Sequence record: DRR723986_11243
Direction: 5' to 3' (one strand)
DNA: 55,062 nucleotides
Shown: one piece after another, positions 1-18,229 of the stretch
Position numbering within the stretch: the first letter of the stretch is position 1
How the letters are laid out: the number at the start of each line of letters is the position of its first letter
Program-made: the position numbers and the translations under genes
The notes under the pieces: generated by a model
The model's database searches: none
What the model saw: only the letters and a program-made list of their open reading frames with translations
What the model was told of the DNA's origin: nothing

Positions 1-76
1 AATGATATATCATTATAAACAGCTCAATCAAAAAGAATGATTTAATTAATTTTATCTAAAACTCTAATTTGTCAAA

Positions 77-778
77 ATGAATTTAATCGATAAAGTTTAT
101 ATAATAACAGGAGGTAGTTCTGGCCTAGGAAAAGCTTTTGCGCATGAATTGAAAGTAAATTTTGCTGATGTAATAATTACCGGCCGTGATTTAGAAAAGT
201 TAAAAAGCGTAAGCGAAGAGCTGGGATGTAGCTATTTTCATGCAGATGTTACCATTGATGAGGAAATAGATGCTTTGATGGAATTTACATTGAAGAAGTT
301 TAAAAAACTAGACGGTATCATTAATAATGCAGGTATTGGTGGATGGGCGCCTGTTGAAGAATTGACGCGCGAAAAAATGCAAGAAGTATACAACGTAAAT
401 GTGTTTGGAGCAGCAATGATGGGGGCAAAAGCAGCTAAAATTTTTAAAGAACAAAATTTTGGAACAATTGTGAATATCGCTTCAACGGCTTCCTTGAAAG
501 GTTATAAAAATGGATCGATTTATGCTTCGTCTAAATTTGCGTTAAGAGGCATGACTCAATGCTGGCAGGCTGAATTGAGACCTTTCAATGTAAGAGTGAT
601 TCAGATCAATCCTTCAGAAGTCCCTACAGCATTTGGAGTGGATGACAGAACTGAAAGGAGTTTAGAGGAAAACAAGCTGACACCCAAAGAAATCGCAGAT
701 GTATTGATTTCCAGTCTAAAAATGGATGAAAGAGGATTTGTGCCTGAAGTTTCAGTGTTTGCAACTAATCCTTTTTAG
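77..778 (+). CDS. SDR family oxidoreductase
   Basis: TGGSSGLG Rossmann motif, NNAG, catalytic S and YASSK (YxxxK). Confidence 0.93.
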   Translation: MNLIDKVYIITGGSSGLGKAFAHELKVNFADVIITGRDLEKLKSVSEELGCSYFHADVTIDEEIDALMEFTLKKFKKLDGIINNAGIGGWAPVEELTREKMQEVYNVNVFGAAMMGAKAAKIFKEQNFGTIVNIASTASLKGYKNGSIYASSKFALRGMTQCWQAELRPFNVRVIQINPSEVPTAFGVDDRTERSLEENKLTPKEIADVLISSLKMDERGFVPEVSVFATNPF

Positions 779-9391: not shown

Positions 9392-9751
9392 TTAATTAGC
9401 AGCTGATTCAATCGCCTTTTTTCCCTTAATGCAAAGCCAAATAGTGACACCAACTCCTGCTATGCAACCCACAAAAGTCGCGCAAGCCACTCCCACCGCT
9501 CGAATTACTCCTGACATTCCTTGGTCCGAATCACTGATTTCTTCATCTTCATAATTGTTATTGTTTCCGTTTATAGAGGCAGCTGGATTGCTATCTTCAA
9601 GAACTTGACGTTCTAAAATATTTTTTTTCTCAGATGTTTCTGATTGTTGTTCAATATTTTCGGAGTGAACTAAATGAGTAACCGTTTCTTCCTGTGAAAA
9701 GCCAGTCAAGCTATGAACACCAATAAAAAGCAATATGATAATTAGTCGCAT
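9392..9751 (-). CDS. Hypothetical protein: signal peptide, acidic region, C-terminal TM helix
   Basis: Signal peptide ending GFSQ; hydrophobic segment followed by KGKK; TAAATTTG promoter at 9771-9778 (minus strand). Confidence 0.65.
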   Translation of the reverse strand: MRLIIILLFIGVHSLTGFSQEETVTHLVHSENIEQQSETSEKKNILERQVLEDSNPAASINGNNNNYEDEEISDSDQGMSGVIRAVGVACATFVGCIAGVGVTIWLCIKGKKAIESAAN

Positions 9752-9880
9752 AATTTTTTGTTTTACAGGTCAAATTTATGGCGATAATTGCGTTTTCTTT
9801 AATTGAATTGCATAAACGAATAGTTCATTTTGCGTTTATCGCAAATATTTGGTTTGAATATTTTAATACTTTTATATCAT

Positions 9881-10822
9881 ATGAAAAAGGTTTTATCAAC
9901 AACACTTGTACTTTTTCTGGCATTTTCATTTTGTCTATTTTTTGTAAAAATGTGTGCTCCTGCATCATGGAATGTTTTTTTCAGGATGAACAATTGGTAT
10001 TGCGAAAATGCTGTATTCGTTAATTATCAAGAACAAGATTTTGTAATTGTTGAGGGTTTTAATAGAGGTGGGTATAGAAGTCCAGACATTGGAGGCCTTT
10101 GTGTTTTTAATTTGTCTACCAAAGCAGTGACAGGTACGTTTTATAAGTACCGATCAGTTAATGTGCTCGGCGTTACACATTCCAAAGTTTATGTTTATGA
10201 TGAAAATGATCAGGTAATTGGCCTCAAAATTGGTGATTTAACTGAAGAAGTAAATGTTAGTGAACGATTAAACGAACATTCAGAAATTAAAGATATAATA
10301 GAAAAAATCTGGGTTGATGGAGTTGAGGACATCTTTAGGATTTCTGGAAAAGACGGATATGACTATTCCTACGACTTAGTCAACGACCAATTAGTTCAAC
10401 TGGATTCTACTAACTTAATTGCTCCCAACTTTAACAAAGAAACACATTGCTATAGTCAGCTATTGATACCAACGAAAATTAAAAACAAGCCAATTCTTGA
10501 AGGGAATTGGTTATGCGAATTGGGTTCTAATTACAATGCGATTTTTGAAAATGGGGATAGATTACTAAGTCACAAAACACTGAAAGGTGAAGGAGGTAAG
10601 TTCTTAATAAGCAGAGTGGGAGATGACCAAATCATTTGGCAAACATCTGAAAAAGAGTTTCAAGAGCAATGTGATTTAGAAAAACCATCATGCATTCACG
10701 TAAAAACAAATGAATCAACTTTCTATGCGTTTTTTCAGGATGGCTCAGGTGATGGAAATCTATACATTTTAGAATTGGATTCTAAATCGGGAGAAATCTT
10801 GTGGTCCAGAGAATTATTTTAA
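9881..10822 (+). CDS. Hypothetical membrane-anchored beta-rich (propeller-like) protein
   Basis: Start refined to ATG 9881 (MKKVL plus hydrophobic helix); C-terminal PQQ-like blade LELDSKSGEILWS. Confidence 0.7.
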   Translation: MKKVLSTTLVLFLAFSFCLFFVKMCAPASWNVFFRMNNWYCENAVFVNYQEQDFVIVEGFNRGGYRSPDIGGLCVFNLSTKAVTGTFYKYRSVNVLGVTHSKVYVYDENDQVIGLKIGDLTEEVNVSERLNEHSEIKDIIEKIWVDGVEDIFRISGKDGYDYSYDLVNDQLVQLDSTNLIAPNFNKETHCYSQLLIPTKIKNKPILEGNWLCELGSNYNAIFENGDRLLSHKTLKGEGGKFLISRVGDDQIIWQTSEKEFQEQCDLEKPSCIHVKTNESTFYAFFQDGSGDGNLYILELDSKSGEILWSRELF

Positions 10823-10895: not shown

Positions 10896-13800
10896 ATGTC
10901 TCAAGGAAAAAAATTTGGAACATTTGCAGGAGTATTTACTCCGTCTATCTTGACGATTCTCGGGGTGATCATGTACCTAAGAATGGGGGAGGTAGTTGGT
11001 AACTCCGGACTAGGAGGAACAATTCTTATCATTCTGATTGCCCACGTTGTTTCAGTTACCACGGGATTATCGGTTTCATCAATTGCGACAGACAAGAAAG
11101 TAGGTGCAGGTGGAGTTTATTATGTCTTATCCAGAAGTTTAGGATTACCAATTGGTGGAGCATTAGGTTTGACTCTTTTTGTTGCGACAGCCTTATCAAT
11201 CGCCCTATATATGGTAGGTTTTGCTGAAATCGCCAATGCAAAAATGGGTTATGGAGTGACTATTAATGAAAAGGGCGAATATTTATATGACTTAAATGCC
11301 ATTCGATTTACAGGATCTGTTGGATTATTAGCATTGGGAATTATTGCCTTGATCAGTACTTCAATAGCTATAAAGAGTCAGTTTTTTATTTTGGGTGCGA
11401 TCTTGTTATCATTGTTCGCAATTTTTTTAGGAGATACCTCTCAAGCCTCTACTGAAGTTTTACCATCAGAATATGTGTCTCCTGGGTTTTTTCCAATGTT
11501 CGCACTCTTCTTTCCAGCTGTTACTGGATTTACAGCAGGTATTGCTATGTCGGGAGATTTAAAGAACCCTAAAAAATCTATTCCTTATGGAACAATGCTA
11601 GCAATAGGTGCGGGTTTATTGGTTTACATAGTTTTGGCAATATATTTATCGACTTCATTTACTGATAAGGAGTTAATAGAAAATAGCAATCTTTTGTATG
11701 AAATAACAATGCTTGGCGGAGCGTTTGTATTGGCCGGAGTTTTCGGGGCAACATTGTCGTCAGCATTAGGAGGTATTTTAGGAGGACCAAGAATATTACA
11801 GGCCATGTCTGTTGATAAAATCACACCGAAATTTTTTGCGAAAGGAGTAGGACAGGCTAATGAACCAAGAAATGCATTAATTCTGACATTGTTAATTGCC
11901 GAAGCTGGCATTTTAATCGGTGATTTAAATGTAATTGCCGAAGTGGTTTCAATGTTTTATCTAACCGCTTATGGATTTATAAATCTGTCTTTCTTTCTTG
12001 AATCTTGGGCAAGTTCTGACTTCAATCCGACTTTTAAAGTTCGGAAATGGGTAGGGTTACTAGGGTTTACTGTGTCATTTGTAATTATGTCTCAGTTAAA
12101 CTTATTAGCCATGTTTGCTGCCATTATTATTATAGGAGGCATCTATCTGTATTTATCTAGAAAGCAAGTTGCCCTTGGTACAGGAGATATTTGGCAATCA
12201 GTTTGGGCGACAATTGTTAAGAAAGGACTTAAAAGAATGGAGGCCGGTCAGGATCATAAACGAAACTGGAAGCCCAACACCTTATTGTTCAGTACAGGTA
12301 ATCAGTATCGAACAAAAATGATTGAATTCTCAAAAGCTGTTTCCGGTCAAAACGGAATCATAACCAATTTTGACTTGATTGAGAACGAAAGCGCAACCGT
12401 ACTTTTTCCAAAATCTAAAGAAACAGTATCAGATGAGGAACTAGAAAAATACGGAATATTCGGAAGAAAACTTGAAGTGCAAAATTCCTTTAAAGGGATT
12501 GAAAGTATTGCTTGCACATTCGGATTCAGTGGAGTAGAACCCAATACAGTTTTAATGGCATGGCCAGGGGAAACCGAGAATCCGATTTGGTTCACGCAAA
12601 TGACTCAAAAGTTGATTGATCTTGATTACAACGTATTGTATTTAGATTATGATGATCGTTGGGGATTCAGAAAACAAGAGAAAATAGATTTGTGGTGGAG
12701 AGGTGTAAGTAATAACTCGGAATTGATGTTGCTACTGGCTAAATTCATTTTATCAAGTCCAGATTGGTCGCAGGCCTCCGTACGTATATTATTGGTGAAT
12801 GATACCAATGTTGATTCAAAGGTGATTGAAAATAGAATTCAACACGTATTGGATCAATTCAGGGTCAATGCAGAAATTAAAATTGTCAATAACGAGATTG
12901 ATCAAAAGCCAATCTACGAACTGATGAAGGTTCATTCATCAGAAGCAGATTTAATTTTTGTTGGAATTCCGGATATTGAAGAAGGAGAAGTTGCATCTTT
13001 TGTGGATAGAACAAACAACTTAGTACATACAATCGGAACCACCTTATTGGTAAAGGCATCTACTCAGTTTGATGAAACTGATTTAAAAATTGAACACATT
13101 GACCTCAAATCAGAAGCTGAGGAAATTAATAAAGCTGACTTACTTCCATTGAATGCATGCAAGGATGAATCCTTTAATGAAGCTGTTACAGCTTTTGATA
13201 TCGAATTGAATAGAATCGTTCAAGAATTGACCGAAAATTCAGTAGCCCGAATCGAGAATTATCATCACCGTATCTTTTCTAAAGTGATTGACGTGATGGA
13301 TGCATTTTTAGATGACGTGAATCCAACTGATGCTATTGCTGTTAATCATCAAAAATTAAATGAAGCGCTGAGTAAAGTAGAAGTAGCTTTAAAAGATGCT
13401 GTTGAACATCAACTGACGATTGTCTCTGAAGAATTTAAGAAGGATATTTTACTTTATTTAGAACATAAAGAAGATTTCATCAATCATCTTCCGAATAAAA
13501 TTGTGGTTAAAACAGTCTATGATGGTAAAAAAGAGTTAGTTGCTACTAAACGCAAAGTAAAATTTAGACAAGCTGTGCAGAGAATCTGGTATTCTGAAGG
13601 AATGGTAGAGTCTTATGATCAGTTCCAAGAGTTTGGTTATCAAAATTTAATTTTATTGCATCAATCAAAAAATTTGTTGCATACCGTTTCATGGGATTTT
13701 TTAACAGCTATTAGAGATGCGAAAGAGCTGCCGGCAAAAATAAAGGCAATGAAGGCCAAGTTAGATGAGGCCATTGCTGGTCTAGATGAAGAAGCACTGC

Positions 13801-15941
13801 ATCTAGCATCTAATTTTTACAAGCACATTCGTAATAAGGAACGCGAAAACATCAATCAATTGAATGAAATCATTCTTGAAAAGAAGTATGTCATTGAATT
13901 GCAAGAAAAATATATAGCGACAGGTCCAAGTGCCATTAAGGCCATAAAAAGAGAGCTGCTGCAATTCCCTGATTATTGGGATAGAAATATCCGTGTGTTC
14001 ACCAATCACATTATTGGAGATGTTCAATTAATGAAATTCTCAGCTCGTTTACAAGCGTTTTCAGATGAAGCAGTCAATTATACAACATCAAATTATCTGA
14101 CTTCTCTAGGGACTAACATTTCATCCTTTAAAAACAAAATTGAATTGATTGAGACTGCTGTTAACAGTAAAGATGAAAAAGCATTATTAAACGCAGATGT
14201 ACAATTAGATGAGGAGATTTTCTTGAATTCGAATTTAGTAGTTGGAAAGCTGGTTGAATCAATTGATGAAGCATTAGAGACGATTCCTGAAGAAGTGAAA
14301 TTAATGGCGGCAAAGTCAATTAATGGAATTAGAGATCATCAAGGTAAAAACGTTCAAACAGAAAATGTTTCTTTACGAGACATTACTGAATACCTAGTTT
14401 CTAAAGAGTTTGAAGATCCGATTCATGAACAAATACAATTGTTTTACGATCAGCTGAAAAGAGCGATTGGGAAAATAATTAATGGAACCAATTTAATTCA
14501 ATCAGGCTTGGATGCATTTGCAACAGCTTCACAAACTGAACAACTGGTTGCAGCCATTGAACTGGCAAGAAAAGAACTGGCAGAAGCAGAAGGTCAAATA
14601 GAAACTGCTCAAGTAGCATTTGAAACTGAATTGCGCGATCGAAAAGAGGGATTGAAAAAAGCCTTGGATATCAATCAAATCATTGAGCAAATAGAAACGC
14701 TTACGCAATATGTAAAACAGCACAAGCGCAGAAACGGAATCTCTCAGACTTTACAATCTGTGAATAGAGTAGTTGGGGCTAAATTCACACAGGGCTTGAA
14801 CTATTTCGTGCAAAAGCAACAAGATATTTCTGCCATTGAATACAAACAGAAATACGGTCAAGCCATTTCTGAGCAGGGATTGATTGCAGATTTTGTTGAA
14901 GAAGTTAGTCCTAAAATAGAATTGCCGTTTTACTATCAGCAAATGTACACGACAACGAACTATTCGGATAGTCAGAGCATTGAAAATAGAAAGGATGAAA
15001 TAGCTAAAATCCAATCGGCGATTAACAGAATTGATTCTGGGGCAGCTGGGGGAATTTTAATTTTAGGATCAGCCTCAAGTGGAAAATCATACTTGACTTC
15101 GCATGTAGCCAATTACATGTTGAAAGGGAAAACAGTGCATGTTCATCCTCCAATAAATAATACCAGAAAGAAAGAAGACCTAGTAAAAGCCATTCAAAGA
15201 GCCACTGCGCAAAAAGGTAGTATTGAAAGCATCATGGAGACAATTCCGTCAAAAACGACTTTTGTATTCCAAAATCTAGAGCGTTGGTGGTTAAAGTCTA
15301 AAGATGGTGAATTGTTGTTGAATGAATTGGCAAAAATTATTGGACTTTACGGTTCACAGCATTACTTTGTAATGAACGCAAATATTCATTCTTATCAATT
15401 GATGGCAGAGGTGTCCAGTATTCAGTCAGTGATTACGCGATCAGTAATTTTGGCGCCATTGACGCCAGCTCAGATTAGAGATGCAATTTGGTCTAGACAT
15501 AAAACAGGTGGCTTAAATGCTACCATGAATGGAATTTCAGAAAAACATTTATCCGCCAGTAAAACAAATAAATACTTGACCAAATACCATTCTGTTTCGG
15601 GTGGTGTAATTGGAGTAGCATTGAATAAATGGGCAGCTAGCATCCATGAGAAAGATGATCATGATATCGTTTTGGTGAATCCGAAAAGAACTGAATTCCC
15701 ATCCATTCAAAAAACAGAATTGAAGAACTTAATCTATCAGCTATTCATTCATTACAGCTTGACCAAGGCAGAATTAGTAAGAATTTATGGCCGAGAGCAT
15801 AAAAATTGGATTGAAAGAAACTTAAACATGTTGGCGACATCTGGTTTATTGGCTATCAATGAACGTGATGCCTATTATATTAAATCAGTTGCAAAACCTT
15901 ACGTTGAGAATTGGTTAAACGAAATGGGATTCATTAAATAA
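10896..15941 (+). CDS. SLC12/CCC-family transporter fused to a long helical region and a C-terminal STAND/AAA-like NTPase-wHTH module
   Basis: KFGTFAGVFTPSILTILGVIMYLR, FFPAVTG..AG..MSGDLKNP, NWKPN, EPNTVLMAW, IDLWW, LLVKAS (aa 1-722); Walker A GSASSGKS at aa 1391; wHTH-like C-terminus. Confidence 0.88.
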   Translation: MSQGKKFGTFAGVFTPSILTILGVIMYLRMGEVVGNSGLGGTILIILIAHVVSVTTGLSVSSIATDKKVGAGGVYYVLSRSLGLPIGGALGLTLFVATALSIALYMVGFAEIANAKMGYGVTINEKGEYLYDLNAIRFTGSVGLLALGIIALISTSIAIKSQFFILGAILLSLFAIFLGDTSQASTEVLPSEYVSPGFFPMFALFFPAVTGFTAGIAMSGDLKNPKKSIPYGTMLAIGAGLLVYIVLAIYLSTSFTDKELIENSNLLYEITMLGGAFVLAGVFGATLSSALGGILGGPRILQAMSVDKITPKFFAKGVGQANEPRNALILTLLIAEAGILIGDLNVIAEVVSMFYLTAYGFINLSFFLESWASSDFNPTFKVRKWVGLLGFTVSFVIMSQLNLLAMFAAIIIIGGIYLYLSRKQVALGTGDIWQSVWATIVKKGLKRMEAGQDHKRNWKPNTLLFSTGNQYRTKMIEFSKAVSGQNGIITNFDLIENESATVLFPKSKETVSDEELEKYGIFGRKLEVQNSFKGIESIACTFGFSGVEPNTVLMAWPGETENPIWFTQMTQKLIDLDYNVLYLDYDDRWGFRKQEKIDLWWRGVSNNSELMLLLAKFILSSPDWSQASVRILLVNDTNVDSKVIENRIQHVLDQFRVNAEIKIVNNEIDQKPIYELMKVHSSEADLIFVGIPDIEEGEVASFVDRTNNLVHTIGTTLLVKASTQFDETDLKIEHIDLKSEAEEINKADLLPLNACKDESFNEAVTAFDIELNRIVQELTENSVARIENYHHRIFSKVIDVMDAFLDDVNPTDAIAVNHQKLNEALSKVEVALKDAVEHQLTIVSEEFKKDILLYLEHKEDFINHLPNKIVVKTVYDGKKELVATKRKVKFRQAVQRIWYSEGMVESYDQFQEFGYQNLILLHQSKNLLHTVSWDFLTAIRDAKELPAKIKAMKAKLDEAIAGLDEEALHLASNFYKHIRNKERENINQLNEIILEKKYVIELQEKYIATGPSAIKAIKRELLQFPDYWDRNIRVFTNHIIGDVQLMKFSARLQAFSDEAVNYTTSNYLTSLGTNISSFKNKIELIETAVNSKDEKALLNADVQLDEEIFLNSNLVVGKLVESIDEALETIPEEVKLMAAKSINGIRDHQGKNVQTENVSLRDITEYLVSKEFEDPIHEQIQLFYDQLKRAIGKIINGTNLIQSGLDAFATASQTEQLVAAIELARKELAEAEGQIETAQVAFETELRDRKEGLKKALDINQIIEQIETLTQYVKQHKRRNGISQTLQSVNRVVGAKFTQGLNYFVQKQQDISAIEYKQKYGQAISEQGLIADFVEEVSPKIELPFYYQQMYTTTNYSDSQSIENRKDEIAKIQSAINRIDSGAAGGILILGSASSGKSYLTSHVANYMLKGKTVHVHPPINNTRKKEDLVKAIQRATAQKGSIESIMETIPSKTTFVFQNLERWWLKSKDGELLLNELAKIIGLYGSQHYFVMNANIHSYQLMAEVSSIQSVITRSVILAPLTPAQIRDAIWSRHKTGGLNATMNGISEKHLSASKTNKYLTKYHSVSGGVIGVALNKWAASIHEKDDHDIVLVNPKRTEFPSIQKTELKNLIYQLFIHYSLTKAELVRIYGREHKNWIERNLNMLATSGLLAINERDAYYIKSVAKPYVENWLNEMGFIK

Positions 15942-16684
15942 TGGAGTTGAAAGATCTATATCAATTTAAGCCTTCATTTCATATTGGAGGAATTAGCATT
16001 CAAACACTGATTTTGCTCGGAATAATTGCTGCATTTATTTTTGGATTCTTCTATATCTTCAAAAAATATGTTGGACCGTTTTTAGGCTCAAGAAAGGCAA
16101 TTAAAAAAGCATCTGTATTGGCATATCGATTAGAGGTGCTCGCATGGACGCTCTTTTCATTATTTGGAATCTATCTTCTGCTTTCAGACAGTTTATATAT
16201 AACGCTTGTACTATTGGCAGTTGTGATGCTTGCAGGTCGAAACTTTTGGAGAGATCTGTTCTCAGGTGTGGCGTTCCGTTTAGAAAATAAGTTTGAAGTT
16301 GGCGATCCTGTGCGATTTGAAGAATATAACGGAACATTAGATAGCGTAAGCCCTAGAAATATTCAAATCAAAACAGATACCGAAGAGTTAGTATTGATAC
16401 CGTTCAGAAAATTGTCTAATGCCGTATTTGTTAAAAGACAAGCGAAAGGAAAATTACATTCTGCGAAAATTGAATTAGCGATCGGCGATAAAAATGCCGA
16501 GCAAGTTATGGCTAGAGTTCATGATTGGATTTACGAATGTCCTTGGGCAATGACCAATGAGAAAGTGCAAGCAAAGTTGATTTCTAGTAACGTAATAGCA
16601 GTTACTGTTTATGCGGTTGATATGCTTTCGATAAGTAAAACAGAAAATTATCTGAAAAAACGATTGTCTAAATTGAACAGCTAA
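15941..16684 (+). CDS. MscS family mechanosensitive channel domain protein
   Basis: Three TM helices, RDLFSG...FEVGD.V....GT......R..Q......LVLIP; TAATG overlap with upstream gene. Confidence 0.8.
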   Translation: MELKDLYQFKPSFHIGGISIQTLILLGIIAAFIFGFFYIFKKYVGPFLGSRKAIKKASVLAYRLEVLAWTLFSLFGIYLLLSDSLYITLVLLAVVMLAGRNFWRDLFSGVAFRLENKFEVGDPVRFEEYNGTLDSVSPRNIQIKTDTEELVLIPFRKLSNAVFVKRQAKGKLHSAKIELAIGDKNAEQVMARVHDWIYECPWAMTNEKVQAKLISSNVIAVTVYAVDMLSISKTENYLKKRLSKLNS

Positions 16685-17371
16685 TCAATCTATGACTAAG
16701 TTATATGATGAAGAATTCCCGTCAGCTAAATTCACCGAAAATGGGGAACCGTTCAGTACTTTCCATCCAGTGTTTGCGCCGAGGACTTCTGTCCGGTAGG
16801 AAACATTAATCTGTATATCTGTGTTTGACGGAATTATCACCGTCATTTTCTCTTCTGTCGGTTTTTCGTTTGAAACTTGTTCGACATTAGAATGTTCTTT
16901 ACCACCATAAAAGTACTCCGTTTTTATAGAAGCTACTGAGTTTTTTTCTATTGCAAACGAAAAGTTAACTATAGCAGTTGGTTTGAGGTATGCTTGTGTA
17001 AAGATGTTGGTGTTGACGTCATTTGAATCAAGATCAATTTCTTTTTCTTGCTGTAAATAATTTTTTAGGCGGTAATCTAGTTTAAAATTGGAAAGCTGAT
17101 TTAAACCACTTTTGGAGAATGACATAATCCAATTTCCACTTGTGTCTGAATGCGAAGTAACTATCGTTTTTAGGAATATTCCTTTTGTGCCCATTAGTTT
17201 GACTTCTACATTGTTGAGATTGGTATTGGTTGCAACTGTCTTTACATTTCCTGAAAGCGTGATGCAATCTATTGTGCAATTATCACCATATTCACCTTTT
17301 TTTTTGCAGCTAATTAATAACAAAGAAATTGATAGAAAGTACGGGGCTAATAGGACTAAATTTCTGGGCAT
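16685..17371 (-). CDS. Lipoprotein with carboxypeptidase-regulatory-like beta-sandwich domain (paralog A)
   Basis: Lipobox LLISC, LSGNV...N..V.L, SD.SG.W; start refined (17377 also possible). Confidence 0.7.
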   Translation of the reverse strand: MPRNLVLLAPYFLSISLLLISCKKKGEYGDNCTIDCITLSGNVKTVATNTNLNNVEVKLMGTKGIFLKTIVTSHSDTSGNWIMSFSKSGLNQLSNFKLDYRLKNYLQQEKEIDLDSNDVNTNIFTQAYLKPTAIVNFSFAIEKNSVASIKTEYFYGGKEHSNVEQVSNEKPTEEKMTVIIPSNTDIQINVSYRTEVLGANTGWKVLNGSPFSVNLADGNSSSYNLVID

Positions 17372-17388
17372 GTTCATATATGAGTTAA

Positions 17389-17414
17389 TCACGAATTAAT
17401 TTGGCAATAAGTTG
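17389..17414 (-). promoter_or_regulatory. ECF-type promoter
   Basis: Minus strand CAAC-N17-CGTGA upstream of paralog A. Confidence 0.45.
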
Positions 17415-17417
17415 GGT

Positions 17418-18092
17418 TTAATGGAAAAATATCCTCATAGTGTCTTTAGCATACGGAGCTATATTCACCATATCCGGAATTCCTGGTACTTTTAACCAAT
17501 CTTTGCCTTTAGAATCATTTTCTTCTAAACTTGCCCAGATGCTTAAGTGAATGTCTTGATTGGCCGGAATGGTTTGTTCAAAACTTAAACTTGCTGGCAC
17601 CTCTTTATTCGTGTACTTCAGTTCTTTATAACCTTGGCTTTCGAATACAAAACGAGATTCAATTCTTTGAATATTTTGATTATGAATTTCAACTTGAAAG
17701 TAGACCTGAGCAGTTTTAAATAATTCGCTGGTGTAGTGCTGTTCATGATCTGCACTATCAATGTCAAAATAAACCCGTTGCTTTTTTTCAAAGTAGTTTT
17801 TTCTTTCAATTTCGATATAGCCTTCTTTCAGGTTTTCAATATAATCGGCATCAAATGACACTTTCCAAAAACCGTTTTCATCAGTATCAGTGGATACGAT
17901 ATATTTGGTGGTCTTTTTTTTCTTTGCAGTAATGACAATTTTCGCATTTTCAATGGGGTTTGAAGTACCTTGTTCATAAACTTTTCCAGACAGAATATGG
18001 CAATCAAAATTGCAATCATCACCATCAAACTTTGCTTTTTTACAGGATAACAATATTGAACTGGTCATTAAAAAGTAGAAGAGTGTTTTCAT
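17418..18092 (-). CDS. Lipoprotein with carboxypeptidase-regulatory-like domain (paralog B)
   Basis: Lipobox ILLSC, LSGKVYE..T.NPIENAKI, TDENGFW; start refined to MKTLF. Confidence 0.75.
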   Translation of the reverse strand: MKTLFYFLMTSSILLSCKKAKFDGDDCNFDCHILSGKVYEQGTSNPIENAKIVITAKKKKTTKYIVSTDTDENGFWKVSFDADYIENLKEGYIEIERKNYFEKKQRVYFDIDSADHEQHYTSELFKTAQVYFQVEIHNQNIQRIESRFVFESQGYKELKYTNKEVPASLSFEQTIPANQDIHLSIWASLEENDSKGKDWLKVPGIPDMVNIAPYAKDTMRIFFH

Positions 18093-18102
18093 ATTACTCA
18101 TA

Positions 18103-18129
18103 TGACGTGAATAATTTTTGATTCGTTTA
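18103..18129 (-). promoter_or_regulatory. ECF-type promoter
   Basis: Minus strand TAAAC-N17-CGTCA upstream of paralog B. Confidence 0.45.
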
Positions 18130-18229
18130 CCGTTTTTAAGATATTTTTCAATTCTCATTAAAATGCCATCCTCACTCAGTAAGTTTTGATTATCTTAATC
18201 GTCCTATTGTCTAAACCTACAAAATCTCA

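Follow-up and report, generated by a model that had tools for sequence, protein, structure and literature searches.

A cation-chloride cotransporter joined to an ORC/Cdc6-like AAA+ module and encoded with an MscS-family channel: one member of a proposed two-gene module of Bacteroidota

The window analysed here is a stretch of 55,062 nucleotides (nt) from sequence record DRR723986_11243, and the system in question is a pair of adjoining genes within it: a long gene whose product, of 1681 amino acids (aa), begins as a cation-chloride cotransporter (CCC) and ends in an AAA+ ATPase module, and a gene for a channel of the MscS family. This locus is best explained as a representative of a large, apparently undescribed module of Bacteroidota in which two genes encode a helical/AAA+ protein and a dedicated MscS channel. 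An earlier reading of the letters alone, hereafter the sequence-only reading, had centred the system on the CCC, and this emphasis did not survive: only five fused forms and one split form among the 80 places found in a sample of the phylum carry a CCC, and another clade has a Na+/H+ exchanger. It is more accurate to speak of a widespread AAA+-MscS module to which transporter fusions are optional additions. As to function, we put at about even the chances that a nucleotide-dependent switch regulates the dedicated MscS-type channel together with the tethered cation transporter for ion and volume homeostasis. All of the components come from known families, and their combination appears to be undescribed; the literature listings searched, which do not extend to supplementary tables, brought up no AAA+/STAND protein described as an MscS partner or as part of a CCC fusion, and no paper that combined ‘mechanosensitive channel’ and ‘STAND NTPase’. 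To our knowledge, MscS channels are held to be gated by membrane tension alone, and we know of no regulator of prokaryotic CCC transporters.

Anatomy of the two encoded proteins

Both genes lie on the plus strand, and their features are as follows.

10896..15941, plus strand: long gene, 1681 aa, ATG start (listing of open reading frames, ORFs)
10896..12275, plus strand: CCC transmembrane domain (LeuT-fold/APC), aa 1-460, AA_permease match
12276..13061, plus strand: CCC cytoplasmic C-terminal domain, aa 461-722, SLC12 (PF03522) match
13062..14906, plus strand: helical region, aa 723-1337, about 610 aa, from the AlphaFold2 (AF2) model; no known family
14907..15941, plus strand: AAA+ ATPase base, lid and winged helix, aa 1338-1681, including the stop codon (AF2 model, Foldseek, VIA-align)
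15054..15089, plus strand: Walker A strand and P-loop ILILGSASSGKS, aa 1387-1398 (Walker A G1391-S1398)
15267..15290, plus strand: Walker B-like FQNLERWW, aa 1458-1465, non-canonical (alignment columns)
15941..16684, plus strand: MscS-family channel gene, 247 aa, ATG start, the 3' neighbour of the long gene

The last A of the TAA stop codon of the long gene is also the A of the channel ATG, one shared base at 15941, and the TAATG overlap that the sequence-only reading had described is thus borne out by the ORF coordinates. The motifs that it had quoted were all found in the translation where it had placed them, starting in the transporter part at residues 12 (GVFTPSILTILGV), 205 (FFPAVTG), 218 (MSGDL), 457 (NWKP), 549 (PNTV), 597 (IDLWW) and 717 (LLVKAS), and in the C-terminal part at residues 1363 (ENRKDE), 1387 (ILILGSASSGKS), 1519 (LAPLT), 1568 (SGGVIGVAL), 1619 (HYSLTKAEL) and 1643 (LNMLATSGLL). 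The three-part architecture of CCC, helical region and NTPase is real and is conserved in homologues, and the next gene is indeed of the MscS family.

The first 722 residues are, as had been claimed, a complete SLC12/CCC homologue, on the joint evidence of the two Pfam families and of solved structures. AA_permease matched aa 13-460 (E 3.2e-45; 155.1 bits against a Pfam cut-off of 24.6), while PF03522 (SLC12 C-terminal) reached 33.3 bits against a cut-off of 27 when aa 459-722 were scanned alone, and 22.4 bits, under the cut-off, in the scan of the whole protein. All 32 solved chains that matched aa 1-722 at E<=1e-5 were SLC12 proteins, the best of them KCC4 (8.4e-72, with the alignment extending to aa 670) and NKCC1 (5.6e-70); for the transmembrane part alone, chains of human NKCC1 were closest (E 3e-68). 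The TIGR00930 model of K-Cl cotransporters covered aa 3-681 (E 1.7e-110) with 370.7 bits, and since this is far under its curated cut-off of 953.4, the protein falls on a distant prokaryotic branch, outside the curated K-Cl cotransporter subfamily. With the SLC12 transporters (NKCC1, NCC, KCC1-4 and the archaeal MaCCC) it shares the domain of 12 transmembrane helices (TM) of the APC/LeuT fold and the SLC12 cytoplasmic domain; however, known CCCs stop after their C-terminal domain, whereas the window protein adds 959 residues, including the AAA+ module. Conservation of the CCC part among the homologues is 0.85-0.9.

The ion-binding residues are conserved as well. According to an excerpt of a paper on human NKCC1 (hNKCC1), the Na+ ligands are A610, S613 and S614 on TM8 besides carbonyls of TM1, the K+ ligands are Y383, P496 and T499, and Y686 is a ligand of the second Cl- (Cl2); in the same excerpt, a TM8 substitution abolishes the Na+ site in KCCs, and the Y383 position is His in NCC (PMC9713717). 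In the HMMER alignment, the corresponding residues of the window protein are all identical, namely A285, S288 and S289 for Na+, Y105, P207 and T210 for K+, and Y359 for Cl2. All hNKCC1 side-chain ligands for Na+, K+ and Cl2 are kept, in columns whose conservation among the fused homologues is 90% or more, and because of this retention the transporter part looks like a Na+-coupled K+/Cl- importer of NKCC-like type. In animals, the SLC12 transporters serve cell-volume regulation, and known CCCs are regulated by phosphorylation (WNK-SPAK). An excerpt of another paper describes CCC regulation by nucleotide binding in the C-terminal domain (PMC8280820), and in excerpts of a CCC review the archaeal MaCCC is the sole prokaryotic CCC mentioned (PMC4301019).

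Readthrough or an assembly artefact was considered as the source of the fusion and is ruled out by homologues of the same length together with independent DNA. A search with aa 723-1681 retrieved 43 proteins, of which 37 are 1653-1697 aa long and 35 carry AA_permease, with identity falling to 39% among Crocinitomicaceae-named sequences; in addition, an independent metagenome DNA contig of 4172 bases spans positions 12421-16592.

One homologue (P0005; 71% identical, contig of 9 kb) bears the label ‘Arenicella sp.’, which is the name of a gammaproteobacterium, while all other named relatives are Bacteroidota; the tag is probably a binning label and not a case of transfer. Sequencing runs that hold at least a fifth of the sampled words come from biofloc, seawater, ballast-water and unspecified metagenomes and from one metatranscriptome, and the window gene is a marine Bacteroidota gene.

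Between the transporter and the ATPase lies the helical region, for which the AF2 model of aa 723-1681 (959 residues, 63-row alignment) has a mean predicted local distance difference test score (pLDDT) of 86.4 and a predicted template-modelling score (pTM) of 0.59. In model residues 31-560, most 10-residue blocks have a pLDDT of about 84-95, with one at 75. The region is predicted to fold into helices of 40-80 residues (H36-85, H92-141, H168-216, H289-368, H438-489 and H544-601) with two small beta hairpins. No hydrophobic segment was found in aa 723-1337. For the same residues, Pfam had nothing below E 1.9, PDB sequences had nothing below E 0.19, and the Atlas offered no usable match; fold searches with the whole 959-residue model returned matches dominated by AAA+ chains.

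The description that best fits the C-terminal module is that of an ORC/Cdc6-like AAA+ ATPase whose affinity to STAND proteins is weak; it follows from the module's top structural matches, its conserved Walker A and a sequence score just under the AAA_16 cut-off. The AF2 model of aa 1330-1681 (352 residues, 43-row alignment) has a pLDDT of 92.7 and a pTM of 0.89. In Foldseek, Cdc6/ORC chains ranked highest (E 2.2e-8), ahead of clamp loaders, RuvB and archaeal ATPase_2 proteins, with some NLR and CED-4 chains lower in the list and an Avs3 chain also among the structural matches. In VIA-align, the best match was 1w5t_C (archaeal ORC2), with Z 15.4 and a root-mean-square deviation of 5.5 over 316 residues (model 13..352, all three domains); generic AAA+ domains such as NSF D2 reached Z 13-14 over about 210 residues. 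By sequence, AAA_16 matched aa 1365-1434 of the window protein with 28.9-30.1 bits, just under the cut-off of 32.6, and among 39 aligned members it was found in 27 at E<=1e-3, as was AAA_22 in 19. At the same threshold, nSTAND3 was found in 5 of the 39, nSTAND1 in 2 and nSTAND_NTPase5 in one, and none of them in the window protein; the member at L078 scored 27.4 bits against the nSTAND1 cut-off of 27.1.

The sequence-only reading had called this part a STAND-like NTPase. The P-loop NTPase with its lid and winged helix was recovered by AF2, Foldseek and VIA-align, whereas the STAND label gave way to the ORC/Cdc6-like one, which fits better, given the few nSTAND matches and the lack of sensor repeats: the last helix of the model (338-348 of 352) leaves no room for a C-terminal sensor-repeat domain, and likewise none is present in the 39 aligned members. 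With ORC/Cdc6 initiators and other AAA+ switches (Orc1/Cdc6, RFC clamp loaders and the ATPase_2 proteins SSO1545/PABY2304; 2qen and 2fna were also matched) the module shares the order of base, lid and winged helix, but identity is 11-15%, there is no replication context, a helical region and often a transporter are attached, and Walker B is non-canonical. With STAND NTPases (Apaf-1/CED-4, plant NLRs, bacterial Avs, MalT and nSTAND) it shares the AAA_16-type R..E motif before Walker A and the order of NTPase, helical part and winged helix; unlike them, the window system has neither sensor repeats nor a known effector domain or defence context, and the likeness is below that to ORC/Cdc6.

The Walker A motif GxxxxGKS is intact in the window protein, and residues G62, S66, G67 and K68 of the module are invariant in 11 members of the window's family; R1534 (R205 of the module) is invariant across the 39 aligned members. 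The Walker B-like strand (E126-129 of the model) precedes FQNLERWW, in which the window has Asn where most relatives have Asp, and the Glu is invariant in the fused clade.

The 247-aa partner is an MscS-family channel by its MS_channel_2nd domain (PF00924; aa 104-162, E 5.4e-10, 39.7 bits against a cut-off of 20.2), with three hydrophobic segments on the N-terminal side of the MscS beta domain. In these respects the partner channels resemble other MscS-family members (E. coli MscS, MscK and YnaI), and the beta domain was matched in 37 of 39 aligned partners. They differ in that an AAA+ protein is encoded in trans and in their C-terminal domain, which in 38 of the 39 had no match to the canonical PF21082 (E<=1e-3), against 3 matches in 4 non-partner MscS genes of the same loci. 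The window channel likewise has no PF21082 match, and a stretch of matching length is present (aa 163-247). In partners of stand-alone forms, the canonical pore-helix motif GIAVGFAxQD is retained and the N-terminus resembles a signal peptide; the window channel is shorter than these, with a pore helix less rich in Gly and Ala. The divergent cytoplasmic domain of the partners is as would be expected of a docking surface. As background, some MscS-like channels carry a fused cyclic-nucleotide-binding domain.

The module across Bacteroidota

The pairing of the two genes was examined first of all within the window's own family. The long protein is present in 11 of 61 genomes, as open frames of 1678-1706 aa, and a close orthologue of the 247-aa channel (E<=1.8e-13) is present in exactly those 11, directly downstream in each of them. 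The other 50 genomes have neither the long protein nor a close channel orthologue; 12 other family genomes with any match had only weak matches to other MscS paralogues. The conserved flanks in this family are aconitase, SiaC, OmpH, DUF4924, lipid-A acyltransferase and DinB on one side and an oxidoreductase and an Fe-S protein on the other. In the two most divergent loci of the family, the downstream genes differ, as do most of the upstream ones in L021, and the pair stays.

A profile of the extension was then searched against 1.84 billion representatives, and it retrieved 2035 proteins at E<=1e-3 and 441 at E<=1e-30. Among the best 150 of the 2035 matches, 86 had CCC sequence (69 of these being 1638-1827 aa long) and 64 did not; 31 of the latter were 891-1018 aa long, nearly all of them Met-initiated. 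The stand-alone forms sit on Bacteroidota contigs of up to 8.2 Mb and contain no hydrophobic segments. Some Atlas entries hint at carriers outside the phylum, in Acidobacteriota and Cyanobacteriota. In a sample of the phylum, the module was found in 79 of 401 genomes and 36 of 180 genera, at 80 places, which by length of the open frame are the following.

1671-1710 aa: 5 places
1099 aa, split CCC form: 1 place
1466-1578 aa: 8 places
1124 and 1344 aa: 2 places
958-1053 aa: 36 places
754-837 aa: 6 places
436-466 aa: 21 places
cut by a contig end: 1 place

Most versions are soluble proteins of about 1000 or 440 aa, a minimal one being that of L073, with 433 aa and a 311-aa channel; the split versions without a CCC (NTPase and MscS), for which the sequence-only reading had proposed to look, exist and form the majority. 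All places except one nearly identical to the window were examined as loci, 79 in number. A same-strand MscS-like gene lies directly downstream of the module in 74 of them and directly upstream in 2, and the conserved MscS adjacency is thus borne out in 76 of 79 loci of the phylum as in all 11 of the family. In 85 downstream pairs, the MscS start lies at -226 to +44 nt relative to the stop codon, mostly 1-12 nt away or in an overlap of a few bases, the larger negative values stemming from longest-ORF start calls. The flanking genes, on the other hand, vary between lineages. One genome (G233) has two modules on two contigs, a CCC-fused protein of 1695 aa and a stand-alone one of 1000 aa (L053 and L067), each with its own MscS-like gene downstream. 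In the family that holds most of the stand-alone forms (names Balneolaceae and Balneola), the module is present in 53 of 101 genomes and 20 of 43 genera, where it is single-copy and largely all-or-none per genus; its inheritance looks vertical.

CCC is not the only transporter to which the module is linked. Four of six proteins of about 1490 aa start with a Na_H_Exchanger domain (PF00999), and all six are followed by an MscS-like gene and TrkH, with TrkA found next in the one locus scanned for it. Elsewhere, separate Na_H_Exchanger genes stand beside L052, L077, L129 and L130, TrkH stands beside L072, and CorA occurs in L059; in L064, a stand-alone CCC gene of 741 aa lies two genes further on the opposite strand. 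The ATPase part was placed in a quick maximum likelihood tree, built from the last 345 residues of 86 rows (4 of 90, shorter than 300 aa, having been dropped) and rooted at the midpoint. In this tree, the 16 CCC-linked rows form one group (Shimodaira-Hasegawa-like approximate likelihood ratio test, SH-aLRT, 81) and the six Na+/H+-type rows another (100), on opposite main branches; a transporter was therefore attached to the module at least twice.

A family of about 2000 protein clusters is thereby defined, in which an ORC/Cdc6-like module nearly always has an MscS paralogue of its own encoded beside it and is repeatedly fused to cation transporters, a coherent system that labels such as ‘amino acid transporter’, ‘ATP-binding protein’ and ‘hypothetical protein’ mask.

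Proposed regulation and competing explanations

Modules of the ORC/Cdc6 and STAND types are slow switches that depend on ATP and act by a change of conformation or by oligomerisation. The proposed regulation of channel and transporter follows from a module of this switch type being tied by gene order to MscS and by fusion or linkage to monovalent-cation transporters. In the mechanism proposed, the AAA+ module would act as a slow nucleotide-dependent switch that docks on the divergent cytoplasmic domain of the partner channel and sets whether this channel can open; in the fused forms, it would also control uptake by the NKCC-like cotransporter or the Na+/H+ exchanger. Uptake and release of salt would then be reciprocally regulated in osmotic or ionic shifts, the two not being active together. 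The E/K-rich helical region would be the likeliest sensor, of ionic strength or of a membrane-proximal state, or else a spacer. A bolder form of the proposal is put forward only tentatively: an AAA+/STAND-like switch would assemble under the dedicated MscS-type channel and gate it directly, and in the fused forms it would simultaneously switch the Na+/K+/Cl- cotransporter or Na+/H+ exchanger, with the E/K-rich arm of ~600 residues as a sensor of ionic strength or of the membrane; such a system would be a self-contained bacterial cell-volume regulator and its channel the first ATP-controlled member of the MscS family. Regulation by RCK/KTN (TrkAH, KtrAB, KefC-KefF) and by SUR in SUR-Kir6 (K-ATP) channels is comparable, as a functional analogy only, in that a cation transporter or channel is under cytoplasmic nucleotide-binding control; here, however, the fold is AAA+ and not a Rossmann-like RCK or an ABC nucleotide-binding domain (NBD), and the target is of MscS type.

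Several observations weigh against regulation of the channel and transporter by such a switch. The Walker B is non-canonical, being TFVFQNLE in the window, xDLE in relatives and ENLQN in the stand-alone clade, and four stand-alone members (L059, L062, L064 and L067) are without the Walker A lysine, having GEGAS, WGGLT, GCGAT and GNGNS, respectively. Taken together, these departures imply that ATP turnover is not universal; the sequences suggest nucleotide binding rather than turnover, and not even binding everywhere, and the four proteins may be nucleotide-free pseudo-ATPases. The helical region has neither an assigned fold or role nor a family match in Pfam, PDB sequences or the Atlas. L077, L079 and L129 (3 of the 79 loci) have no MscS-like neighbour, the scan of ion-transport neighbours was selective and had no control set, and the wide synteny among close relatives means that their adjacency counts are not independent. 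Finally, the link between the AAA+ protein and the channel is one of gene order, from which contact is inferred, and no AAA+-MscS domain fusion was found among 228 proteins or 28 longer homologues. The last two points favour an explanation in which the genes share an operon for osmotic adaptation and are co-regulated, with no direct contact or control between their products. We nonetheless regard such independence as unlikely: the two genes co-occur perfectly in the 61 family genomes (11 with both, 50 with neither), little or no sequence separates stop and start in most of the 85 pairs, the C-terminal domain of the partner channels is divergent, and the two modules of a single genome each have their own channel. 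It is also to be considered that DNA could be the ligand of a winged helix that follows an ORC/Cdc6-like ATPase; the archaeal ORC/Cdc6 proteins, the best structural relatives, bind DNA with the same three domains. The module would then be a transcriptional regulator, membrane-tethered or cytoplasmic, for instance of osmotic genes, and MscS would merely be co-transcribed. This we consider the least probable explanation of all, since the MscS pairing is kept across very different lineages and architectures, which is not required of a general regulator, the winged helix of STAND proteins has no known DNA role, and no DNA target or repeat was seen, although no search was aimed at these.

The structural matches bear on two further explanations. 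NSF D2 was among the best of them (Z 14.0-15.4) and the matches of the module profile include NBD2 of Hsp104/ClpB (E about 1e-3); as many AAA+ proteins remodel complexes, and as tight gene coupling suits a dedicated chaperone, the protein could be an assembly or quality-control factor that inserts, oligomerises, disassembles or degrades the channel, and the fused transporter with it, without gating them. This is quite improbable, as the order of base, lid and winged helix and the ORC/Cdc6-like best full-length match belong to the switch/loader class and not to unfoldases, the non-canonical Walker B and the loss of Walker A in some members argue against a motor, and canonical MscS channels are not known to need such a factor. 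Other matches, to NLR, CED-4 and Avs3 chains, together with the weak Pfam likeness of some members to nSTAND1/nSTAND3 and BrxC_BrxD, recall anti-phage defence, in which an NTPase with a membrane effector is a common layout. The sequence-only reading had indeed offered defence by depolarisation as an alternative: on sensing infection, the STAND-like NTPase would open the MscS-like channel or reverse the transporter, depolarising and killing the cell in an abortive infection. This alternative drew no support and is very unlikely. No PADLOC model (2023 library) matched the long protein, the extension alone or the channel at E<=0.01, and the neighbours gave a single weak PADLOC match, to Cas6b, on an unrelated ORF, being otherwise housekeeping or ion-transport genes. 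From genus to genus, the locus stays in place between conserved flanking genes, and in two families the module occurs in single copy and consistently within genera. The protein stops after the winged helix without a C-terminal sensor-repeat domain, and the transporters fused to the module are intact and conserved.

Should the two proteins interact, the switch would represent a new class of regulatory subunit for mechanosensitive channels. Regulation of channel and transporter together would further provide a bacterial model of coupled salt uptake and release, a problem that animal cells solve with NKCC/KCC and kinases, and one that could be tested in cultivable systems (Paracrocinitomix, Crocinitomix and relatives of Balneola).

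Neighbouring genes and further observations

Four ORFs adjoin the pair in the window (9392-10822 and 16685-18158), of 119 aa (minus strand), 330 aa (plus), 235 aa (minus) and 246 aa (minus). None of them had a confident Pfam match, and none was found at the same place in 10 related loci; other metagenome contigs part from the window at about 10811 and 16659. These four look like strain-specific insertions on either side of the two-gene unit. The scan for promoters and terminators, which models promoters of sigma-70 type only, gave no information, with 25 sites where 30.4 were expected and 5 where 4.3 were. Parts of both genes are covered by contigs from two metatranscriptome libraries, none of the listed pieces bridging 15941, and such contigs are not proof of transcription or co-transcription.

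Some individual loci depart from the common layout. In L056 (7031-12831), the CCC is split into a 599-aa ORF with the permease and a 1089-aa ORF with the rest of the C-terminal domain and the extension, 33 nt apart and followed by an MscS-like gene; the split may be natural or may come from a frameshift or a sequencing error. L077, L129 and L130 have another order, with the module protein (749-808 aa) first, a small membrane protein (185-231 aa) next and the separate Na_H_Exchanger gene last. The small membrane proteins have no Pfam match; the one of L130 matches the profile of partner MscS channels at 4e-10, and those of L077 and L129 do not. In L064 (6647-16361), MscS-like genes lie on both sides of the module, of 280 aa upstream and 322 aa downstream. 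The members deficient in Walker A (L059, L062, L064 and L067) still keep their MscS partner. Lastly, in many loci of Balneolaceae type a 126-aa ORF lies 3' of the MscS partner on the same strand; it does so in L057 (7700-8077), the one scanned, where it encodes an ankyrin-repeat protein (Ank_2, E 8.5e-33), and in at least 10 other loci (L058, L060, L063, L075, L082, L090, L091, L092, L095 and L099); its product may be a third component.

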